DNA from: an uncultured Chloroflexia bacterium | Lineage (GTDB): Bacteria > Chloroflexota > Dehalococcoidia > DSTF01 > WHTK01 | Reading direction: 5' to 3' | DNA: 64,000 nt | Assembly: GCA_963732945.1 (NCBI GenBank) | Contig: CAVTBL010000003.1 | Span: 467,084-531,083, forward strand | Shown: positions 44,675-45,280 of the stretch, piece after piece | Layout of the letters: each line of letters opens with the position of its first letter | Numbering within the stretch: the first letter of the stretch is position 1 | Position numbers and translations under genes: made by a program | The notes under the pieces: generated by a model | The model's input: the letters and a program-made list of their open reading frames with translations, nothing else | Told to the model about the DNA's origin: nothing | Database searches by the model: none

Positions 44675-45184
44675 ATGCCCCCGAACGTCATCATCCGAGA
44701 CGCACGCCCCGATGAGGTCGATGCCGTCGGCAACGTAATCCTCGAGGCTTACGCGCAGTTCGAGGCCGCCTACCCGGCCGATAGCTGGGCGCGCTACTAC
44801 GACATGGTCGGGCGTATGCAGGAGCACTTCGAGGCTGCCGAGGTCATCGTCGCCGAGCTCGGGGGTCGCATCGTCGCCACCGTGACGTTCTACAGGGACG
44901 GGTCGAAATCGGGTCAGGGCGAGTGGCCCGAGGGCTGGGCCGGTGTGCTACGACTCGCAGTGCTGCCCGATCAGCGCGGTCTCGGGCTCGGCAAGCAGCT
45001 CACCGAGGAGTGTATCCGCCGCTGCCGCGTCGGGGGCATCTCGACCCTCGCACTGCACACCACGGACTGGATGCCGCTGGCGAAGTCGATGTACGAGCGC
45101 ATGGGCTTCGTGCGCGAGCCCGGCTTCGACTTCATCCCGCGCCCCGGCATTTACGCCTACGGCTACAGGCTCGACGTCTCATAG
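44675..45184 (+). CDS. GNAT family N-acetyltransferase
   Basis: 169 aa. QRGLGLGKQLTEECI is an acetyl-CoA-binding motif. Confidence 0.85.
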   Translation: MPPNVIIRDARPDEVDAVGNVILEAYAQFEAAYPADSWARYYDMVGRMQEHFEAAEVIVAELGGRIVATVTFYRDGSKSGQGEWPEGWAGVLRLAVLPDQRGLGLGKQLTEECIRRCRVGGISTLALHTTDWMPLAKSMYERMGFVREPGFDFIPRPGIYAYGYRLDVS

Positions 45185-45280
45185 GCATAGGCATAGGCAT
45201 AGGCATAGGCATAGGCATAGGCATAGGCAGGGATTAGTCCCGTCGCCTCACTCTATGTCTATGTTTATGCCTATGTCTTC
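45180..45280. repeat. (CATAGG)x8 perfect microsatellite plus inverted CTATG-rich arm
   Basis: 45180-45227 is eight perfect CATAGG units overlapping the TAG stop. Next comes the GGGATTAGTCCC mini-hairpin, then CTCTATGTCTATGTTTATGCCTATGTC. Confidence 0.95.

Follow-up and report, generated by a model that had tools for sequence, protein, structure and literature searches.

A repeat-armed hairpin between convergent GNAT and Rieske oxygenase genes, and its dispersed family, in a Chloroflexota genome

Dispersed intergenic imperfect palindromes, often located at gene 3′ ends, include REP/BIME (REPIN), Correia and ERIC elements and the cyanobacterial SDRs. Some REP-like palindromes terminate transcription or stabilise mRNA, and such elements can multiply inside a single lineage. 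To our knowledge, almost nothing is known about 3′-end formation in Chloroflexota. Long simple sequence repeats (LSSRs) with units of 5–11 nt are found in prokaryotes (Mrazek et al. 2007, as summarised in PMC4679880), and Chloroflexota are not named among the taxa in that paper's summary of the survey. Architecturally closest to the element described here are the cyanobacterial short tandemly repeated repetitive sequences (STRRs), such as the hupS–hupL intergenic hairpin, for which roles in transcript stability, termination or translational coupling have been proposed and whose function is unproven (PMC2670836).

Here we analyse an element lying between convergent GNAT acetyltransferase and Rieske oxygenase genes in a 64-kb stretch of DNA from an uncultured soil Chloroflexota bacterium (hereafter the window). 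It combines an LSSR/STRR-type repeat hairpin, REP-like dispersal and a terminator-position structure. As in LSSRs, head-to-tail units of a length between 1 and 11 nt (here 6 nt) form a perfect array that exceeds chance expectation, is intergenic, belongs to a non-pathogen and presumably arose by slippage; copy number also varies between relatives at a sister locus with the unit CCTTTGC (compare the LSSR summary in PMC4679880). Unlike the LSSRs outlined there, the array forms one side of a hairpin, opposite a complementary array, its unit recurs at several gene ends, and it occupies a position that holds a terminator in relatives. Like STRRs, the element consists of intergenic short tandem repeats able to form a hairpin (PMC2670836), whereas STRR units are usually 7 nt long and belong to filamentous cyanobacteria; those found here are 6 nt (7–8 nt in sister elements) and lie in a high-GC Chloroflexota genome, where comparative evidence shows that canonical terminators were displaced. 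The resemblance to STRRs is thus functional and architectural only. Literature searches returned no description of such repeat-armed hairpins in Chloroflexota.

Anatomy and predicted fold of the element

The element and its flanking genes are laid out as follows.

44675–45184, + strand: GNAT acetyltransferase gene, 169 aa (open reading frame; Pfam PF00583 and related families)
45180–45229, + strand: 5′ arm, perfect (CATAGG)x8.3, register GCATAG (Tandem Repeats Finder, sequence and pattern matches)
45182–45184, + strand: GNAT stop codon TAG, within the first repeat unit of the array
45230–45252, + strand: spacer or loop, holding the mini-hairpin GGGA-TTAG-TCCC (GGGATTAGTCCC) at 45230–45241
About 45252/45253–45278, + strand: 3′ arm, degenerate (CTATGY)x4.5
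45284–46624, − strand: Rieske/LigXa_C-type oxygenase gene, 446 aa (open reading frame; Pfam domains of an identical cluster representative)

Tandem Repeats Finder (TRF) reports the first array with period 6, 100% matches and a score of 100, bearing out the original prediction of a perfect CATAGG array running from the GNAT TAG; the same bases can be read in an alternative register as a GCATAG unit, and copy number is given as assembled. The GNAT reading frame closes with ...GTC TCA TAG, the array beginning two bases ahead of the stop, inside the last sense codon, and within the array the stop is followed by another seven TAGs in frame. The inverted arm predicted between the two stop codons is also present: TRF detects a second array at 45252–45278 (unit TCTATG or CTATGY, period 6, 4.5 copies, 80% matches), and the 99-nt GNAT/Rieske spacer forms one long imperfect palindrome that is its sole structure. 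The element ends 5–6 nt, rather than the 4 nt first proposed, before the Rieske stop codon TAA (TTA at 45284–45286). Both Rieske and LigXa_C domains are present in the cluster representative and in orthologues of this convergent ORF.

An inverted-repeat search recovered four equivalent 26-nt registers with 85% complementarity, each made up of 22 Watson–Crick and 4 G·T pairs with zero other mismatches. Every departure of the 3′ arm from CTATGC is a C→T change, placing G on the left opposite T on the right in all registers. When the 12-mer GCATAGGCATAG was searched with up to two mismatches, the window yielded 31 matches against 2.3 expected, a count reached by none of 100 shuffles. A chance origin of the arms is excluded; the feature is real and strongly non-random.

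The perfect array may be prone to slippage, as suggested indirectly by a sister array whose copy number is 9.9 here and 2.6 at the orthologous site of the relative L076, and it resembles the perfect, potentially hypermutable simple repeats that lie beside genes at contingency loci. In contrast to contingency loci, the unit length is divisible by 3 and the array starts at the stop codon, away from promoters, leaving no switch of frame or promoter spacing. Since a 6-nt unit at or after the stop codon is involved, a change in copy number cannot alter the GNAT or Rieske protein; phase variation of either gene was ruled out on the same grounds and by the in-frame TAGs that follow, and a frame effect on the Rieske gene by the end of its ORF before the 3′ arm. 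The contiguity of the repeats likewise rules out a CRISPR array.

RNA folding of the element gives −58 kcal/mol on the + (GNAT) strand (z = −9.2) and −44.2 kcal/mol on the − strand (z = −6.75), and on either strand none of 200 shuffles folds as well; folds with DNA parameters give −26 and −23 kcal/mol. The + strand is predicted to fold more strongly because its four arm differences form G·U pairs, which on the − strand become A·C mismatches. This G·U bias (four out of four) is suggestive only, statistical weight being limited by the four events and a general C→T mutation bias. The multi-register pairing of the original prediction holds in silico: forced one by one, the four registers give −58.3, −61.5, −58.5 and −53.0 kcal/mol, a spread of about 8 kcal/mol, and the ensemble divides among two or three of them according to the flank length included. 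One dominant register, implied by a single fold, was dropped after other flank lengths were tried. Because pairing partners in the 3′ arm suffice for only about 4.5 units, some 3.5 units of the perfect array stay single-stranded in every register.

A hairpin census by minimum free energy proved too noisy in this GC-rich window, and z-scores of gene 3′ and 5′ flanks were used instead. Six of 51 gene 3′ regions (110 nt each) reach z ≤ −3, five of these six being repeat-armed hairpins, and the two strongest values both belong to the present element (z about −8.9 on the 3′ side of GNAT and −8.8 on that of the Rieske gene).

The position of this hairpin, right after two convergent stop codons and available to both strands, is that of an intrinsic bidirectional terminator. 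Its build differs from that of a terminator with a GC-rich stem of 5–14 bp: the stem here measures about 27 bp, has 50% GC, begins at the GNAT stop codon and encloses a structured 20–40-nt loop, and the tails past the stem (TTCGCGTTACG on the + strand, GAGACGTCGAG on the −) lack a U-tract on both strands. A consensus terminator scan of positions 40001–60000 did not call the element, and the scan overall returned 10 sites against 10.1 expected, that is, no enrichment. With neither a U-tract nor a call in the consensus scan, it does not qualify as a canonical intrinsic terminator. Rfam 15 has no match at the site; in the window just the SRP RNA and three tRNAs reach the gathering score.

Repeat-armed hairpins across the window

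The array, first described as unusual in this GC-rich context, is not an isolated oddity. Across the window there are at least four hairpins with GCATAG as their unit, about ten whose arms are tandem repeats of 6–8 nt, and a second perfect array, (CCTTTGC)x9.9 at 48204–48272. Matches to GCATAGGCATAG cluster at five places, four of which have the form (GCATAG)n – spacer – (CTATGY)n; these four are 10677–10812, 16105–16172, 45180–45278 and 57150–57265. The family was read from low-GC islands, the TRF table and individual regions of the window, with gene calls that are partly crude, and apart from the element itself comprises the following.

10677–10812, no strand assigned: hairpin whose units are degenerate (GCGTAG/GCATAG/ACATAG) and whose spacer is 80 nt long, between divergent genes and not at a 3′ end
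13745–13830: repeat-armed hairpin of the GCAAAG(G)/GCAAACGA/GACAAA type
16105–16172, no strand assigned: GCATAG-unit hairpin with the TAG stop codon of a DinG-like helicase gene (− strand), at 16155, inside an arm
18976–19157, − strand: sister element, 7-mer unit AAGCTTC, occupying the spacer between a stop codon and the Shine–Dalgarno sequence of the next gene
37677–37830, + strand: sister element, 7-mer unit AGCTYCA, beginning at the FolD stop codon
46768–46795: one-armed array between divergent genes
48113–48272, no strand assigned: sister element (ACAAACAAGCAAAGT)x2 ... (CCTTTGC)x9.9, between convergent luciferase-like monooxygenase and nitroreductase genes
57150–57265, + strand: GCATAG-unit hairpin with a stem of about 35 bp, reaching from the stop codon of a Meth_synt_2-like gene up to a point 11 nt short of where its paralogue starts
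63181–63290, − strand: sister element, units GCAAACGA and GACAAA, with a GC-rich core hairpin and long A-rich and U-rich periodic arms, adjoining a stop codon

Eight of the approximately ten repeat-armed hairpins lie within 6 nt of a stop codon when read directly against a GC3-based gene map, and for both the GNAT and the DinG-like helicase genes the TAG itself is inside a hairpin arm. A stop codon within the unit is ruled out as their common feature, as only GCATAG and the reverse complement of AAGCTTC contain one. Loops are unrelated among family members, often with a small GC hairpin inside. The arms of 10677–10812 carry mirrored variant units (ACATAG with CTATGT, GCGYAG with CTRCGC), and two arrays of another unit family, at 46770–46790 and 63250–63270, contain an identical 19-nt string. 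This family is of greater interest than the single array.

The density of such repeats bears on the possibility of a plain neutral microsatellite, in which the array is a product of slippage within an AT-richer spacer, and neither the complementary arm nor the hairpin has a function. Short-period arrays occur at 2.66 per 10 kb in the window against 0.89 in 949 kb of relatives' loci, a threefold density that fits this account, as do the surplus unpaired units of the (CATAGG) array and the occurrence of an array in a promoter spacer. Arrays of (GCATAG) with at least four copies are also common elsewhere: a control scan found them in 40 viral contigs, where they mostly resemble coding dipeptide repeats. 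Against it, none of these 40 viral arrays has an inverted CTATGY arm within 200 nt, compared with all four window elements, and the mirrored variants at 10677–10812 indicate that the two arms co-evolve.

The exact 12-mer GCATAGGCATAG is absent from the 60 genome loci searched. The two-arm pattern GCATAGGCATAG-N15-45-CTATGNCTATG has 15 matches in JGI metagenome contigs, none convincing as a relative, so that it is all but missing from them: the matches are coding repeats of low GC, perfect palindromes from actinobacteria and a contig rich in microsatellites (L066/L070), the last a false lead.

Four or more dispersed hairpins with a common GCATAG unit recall REP/REPIN elements, and raise the possibility of a selfish palindromic repeat whose copies are mobile or gene-converting (REP/REPIN-, MITE- or cyanobacterial SDR-like), pass from one intergenic hairpin site to another and overwrite what was there, bring no host benefit and have at most incidental terminator activity. 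The presence of the hexamer at no fewer than four sites in 64 kb and the 19-nt string held in common by two arrays both favour such copying. Departures from the known classes weigh on the other side. REP/REPIN elements differ from the present copies, which have no full-length consensus and share only the unit, with loops and ends that vary; nor was there a GTAG-type head, a set of terminal inverted repeats, target-site duplications or a known associated transposase as for REP-like palindromes. Direct repeats or target-site duplications flanking the four GCATAG copies were not seen, the palindrome abutting coding sequence, nor were conserved termini or terminal inverted repeats distinct from the arrays, and these copies therefore fall outside the MITE definition by terminal inverted repeats plus target-site duplication. 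A Pfam scan of ten window proteins detected no transposase.

Orthologous spacers in related genomes

When the Rieske protein was scanned against one genome per species, the close matches were all Chloroflexota MAGs ("Chloroflexia"/"Dehalococcoidia"), with best identities of 80–82% at the amino-acid level. Loci L130 and L131 belong to ENA ERZ25039495 contig_322, which is syntenic with the window (L130 88.6% identical in nucleotides over 19.7 kb), and L076 is a syntenic JGI contig about 83% identical to the window. These identities give the order ((window, L130/L131), L076). One gene of L126 has 94% amino-acid identity to its counterpart, and L014, L080 and L127–L129 are more distant MAG loci, likewise syntenic. 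All relatives are metagenome assemblies with some indel errors, seen as split genes in the L130 calls.

Alignment (blastn) of the window with L130 breaks at 45180 and restarts at 45285, exactly the ends of the element. The spacer between the GNAT and Rieske genes is homologous in L130 and L076, where GAAGGGGCG...CGCCCCTTCTT is flanked by A-rich and U-rich sequence, the predicted form of an ordinary GC-rich bidirectional terminator, together with a second hairpin, GAGCCTGTCGAACCAC...; hexamer repeats are absent from this spacer in both. As the sister and the outgroup have a common spacer, the hexamer hairpin is derived on the branch leading to the window, where it replaced the terminator-bearing spacer. 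The GNAT protein ends ..LDVS* in the window and ..LNVAQTD* in L076, making the window gene 3–4 codons shorter. Within the loop, GTCGCCTCACTCTATG has a weak match to GTCGAACCACACTAGG in the spacer of the relatives; like the 16-nt core at 45242–45257, with its weak alignment to their second hairpin, it may be a remnant of the ancestral spacer.

An equivalent substitution is seen at 57150–57265. There, L131 and L126 have GTAGGGGCGCAGC-atgc-TGCGCCCCTAC, a GC-rich canonical terminator hairpin, followed in L131 by promoter-like and Shine–Dalgarno sequences; the window has no Shine–Dalgarno sequence at this point. Dimers of GCATAG are absent from the 42 kb of L130 and L131, from which it follows that the GCATAG family is young and specific to the lineage of the window. 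Canonical terminators are in use in the clade (L001, L014, L012, L079, L127 and L128).

Sister elements show both persistence and turnover. The array at the nitroreductase stop codon is (CCTTTGC)x9.9 in the window, x2.6 in L076 and (AGCTGAA)x4.6 in L130. The window, L014 and L080 all retain a hairpin 3′ of the luciferase-like monooxygenase, with differing units, those of L014 and L080 having arms GCAAACTA and GGACAAG (z = −3.5 and −3.2). Likewise, the FolD 3′ hairpin (37677–37830) is common to the window and L130 with changed units. The 63181–63290 element occurs in both the window and L131, more distant relatives having a plain GCGGCCACTTC terminator; this element and the L076 site resemble a terminator GC core with expanded A-rich and U-rich flanks.

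That hairpins persist at orthologous 3′ ends despite unit change is a further argument against the plain neutral microsatellite, which we consider improbable. The same exchange of units at orthologous sites speaks against a factor-binding array, in which the GCATAG/CTATGC units would be DNA or RNA recognition sites of a lineage-specific factor. Near-identical units do turn up in more than one genome of this clade (GCATAG in the window, GCATAGT in L012 and L081), and an analogous proposal, itself a hypothesis, exists for the TAACTGA repeats of Beggiatoaceae (PMC4679880). With unrelated units (AAGCTTC, GCAAAGG, GCAAACGA, GGACAAG and AGCTGAA) at equivalent positions, and with no candidate factor identified, recognition of this kind appears very unlikely.

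These comparisons also speak to the assembly itself. The contig is metagenome-assembled, and the split genes of L130, a related long-read MAG contig, suggest residual indel errors, so an assembler could in principle have made the array or its copy number. Set against this are eight perfect units that join conserved coding sequence cleanly at either end, an array of 50 nt that is far shorter than a read, and the presence of similar elements both at numerous loci and in relatives assembled independently. We regard an artefact as extremely improbable.

For the selfish repeat, the unrelated canonical hairpins of relatives at two sites, taken with the missing GCATAG dimers in 42 kb, make a recent spread in one lineage likely. 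Further in its favour, the elements fill all free spacer, at the expense of C-terminal codons of GNAT and of the promoter and Shine–Dalgarno sequence at 57150–57265. Speaking against it, in addition to the unrelated loops and missing mobile-element hallmarks, copy-number change at the orthologous (CCTTTGC) site resembles slippage in situ rather than transposition, and the spacer core at 45242–45257 may be ancestral. On balance, a purely selfish origin seems unlikely.

Proposed origin and role at gene 3′ ends

Our favoured explanation, to which we give about an even chance, is that a young, slippage-expanded repeat-armed hairpin took the terminator position and probably serves as the RNA 3′-end hairpin of both convergent transcripts. 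It replaced the ordinary GC-rich bidirectional terminator still found in the nearest relatives. At the RNA level, the hairpin may limit read-through, block 3′-exonucleases, or both, for the two transcripts, with an effect predicted to be stronger on the GNAT strand, where each arm mismatch is a G·U pair. A perfect 8-copy arm beside a decayed 4.5-copy partner points to recent expansion of one arm, presumably by replication slippage, and the excess copies, which add registers and no stability, are probably neutral. The terminator position, the status of the hairpin as the only structure in the spacer and the retention of its class at orthologous 3′ ends together suggest to us that it functionally substitutes for the terminator that was lost.

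Several observations count against a 3′-end role. The U-tract and consensus-scan results have been given above; the 10677–10812 hairpin and the 46768–46795 array lie between divergent genes; and among same-direction gene contexts, the better-folding strand is the transcribed strand in just three of five cases. A perfect stem of about 27 bp would also be an RNase III substrate, and the mRNA could then be destabilised rather than protected. The filling of all non-coding space and the trimmed GNAT C terminus are compatible with selfish or neutral growth as well as with the favoured 3′-end hairpin.

The identity of the unit across sites calls for a separate account. Independent slippage would not be expected to repeat the same hexamer at two or more sites formerly occupied by unrelated canonical hairpins, which suggests that the unit spread, whether as a mobile element, through ectopic conversion of one hairpin by another or because a recognised motif was selected. 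A bolder version, which we think unlikely, is that the GCATAG hairpins are actively spreading palindromes defined by their unit alone. They would overwrite terminators (the proposed mechanism being mobility, a hairpin-templated process or gene conversion) and then grow by slippage up to the coding sequence, so that the clade keeps "self-renewing" 3′-end hairpins whose units turn over at orthologous sites.

Were the elements only neutral or selfish, they would extend the list of known prokaryotic LSSRs modestly. The arrays are candidate markers for strain typing and possible sources of mis-assembly in soil MAGs. The paired orthologous spacers, with a repeat hairpin in one genome and a canonical terminator in the other, offer a test set for asking whether a long stem without a U-tract can replace an intrinsic terminator. 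If the favoured explanation of a 3′-end hairpin is true, it would join microsatellite slippage, dispersed palindromic repeats and transcription termination, which are usually separate topics, and would mean that terminator-position hairpins have undergone wholesale replacement by a simple-repeat structure within about 11% nucleotide divergence.

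Repeat arrays beside nitroreductase and in a promoter spacer

The stop codon of a nitroreductase gene is adjoined by a perfect heptamer array, (CCTTTGC)x9.9 (window 48204-48272), which exceeds the originally flagged (CATAGG) array in length. At the orthologous site, the next relative (locus L076) has 2.6 copies, and the array of the closest relative (locus L130) is built on another unit, (AGCTGAA)x4.6. A one-armed 8-mer array, (TTGCTCGT)x3.5, lies at window 46768-46795 within a divergent promoter spacer that is conserved apart from the array itself. The 19-nt string TTGCTCGTTTGCTGGTTTG is common to this array and to the 3′ arm (63250-63270) of the hairpin at 63181-63290. 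At the corresponding junction, L130 contains an inserted 1-kb GerE-family gene. The alcohol dehydrogenase and QRPTase genes of L130 are both broken in two (5749-6848; 15955-16816), which suggests residual indel errors in its long-read assembly and calls for caution in fine comparisons with the closest relative's contig.

Hairpins, structured regions and other features of the window

Two Meth_synt_2-like paralogues are separated by a GCATAG hairpin (within window 57150-57290), and the ATG of the second gene lies 11 nt past the hairpin end, with no Shine-Dalgarno sequence between the two. The same spacer in L131, also a locus of the closest relative, contains GGAGG and a promoter-like TTGACC..GACAAT. 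Because the stem would draw the upstream stop and downstream start together, translational coupling of the paralogues is possible.

Upstream (5′) of the gene at 54594-55046, the minus strand of window ~55047-55160 folds with a z of -6.2. This region is low in GC and lacks periodicity, and no Rfam match in it reaches gathering score; a structured leader is one possibility, a further palindrome the other.

The window also encodes the following:
16155-18963, minus strand, 935-aa RNase_T/DinG-type helicase fusion
22845-23107, minus strand, bacterial large SRP RNA
25733-25808, tRNA-Lys(CTT)
25846-25930, tRNA-Leu(TAG)
33077-33168, tRNA-Ser(GCT)

The fusion protein combines an N-terminal RNase_T exonuclease domain with a DinG-type helicase part containing DEAD and Helicase_C_2 domains, and a GCATAG repeat unit provides the stop codon of its gene.

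Repeat arrays in related Chloroflexota

In one relative (L081/L082, 2262-2292), (ACTGACA)x4.4 directly precedes the start codon of an alcohol dehydrogenase gene, recalling the TAACTGA repeats of Beggiatoaceae and cyanobacteria, which sit 5′ of start codons (PMC4679880).

Hairpins with repeat arms, or arrays of 7-8 nt units, adjoin stop codons at these loci of relatives:
L012, 3566-3647, unit ATAGTGC
L014, 7855-7932, unit GCAAACTA
L080, 2170-2242, unit GGACAAG
L127, 13607-13634, unit ATCAGCC
L127, 15608-15633, unit TAGCTGT
L128, 12634-12678, unit GCTGACG

Since these stop-adjacent elements occur in related Chloroflexota MAGs, the trait extends beyond the window genome: repeat-armed hairpins and arrays at stop codons are clade-wide.
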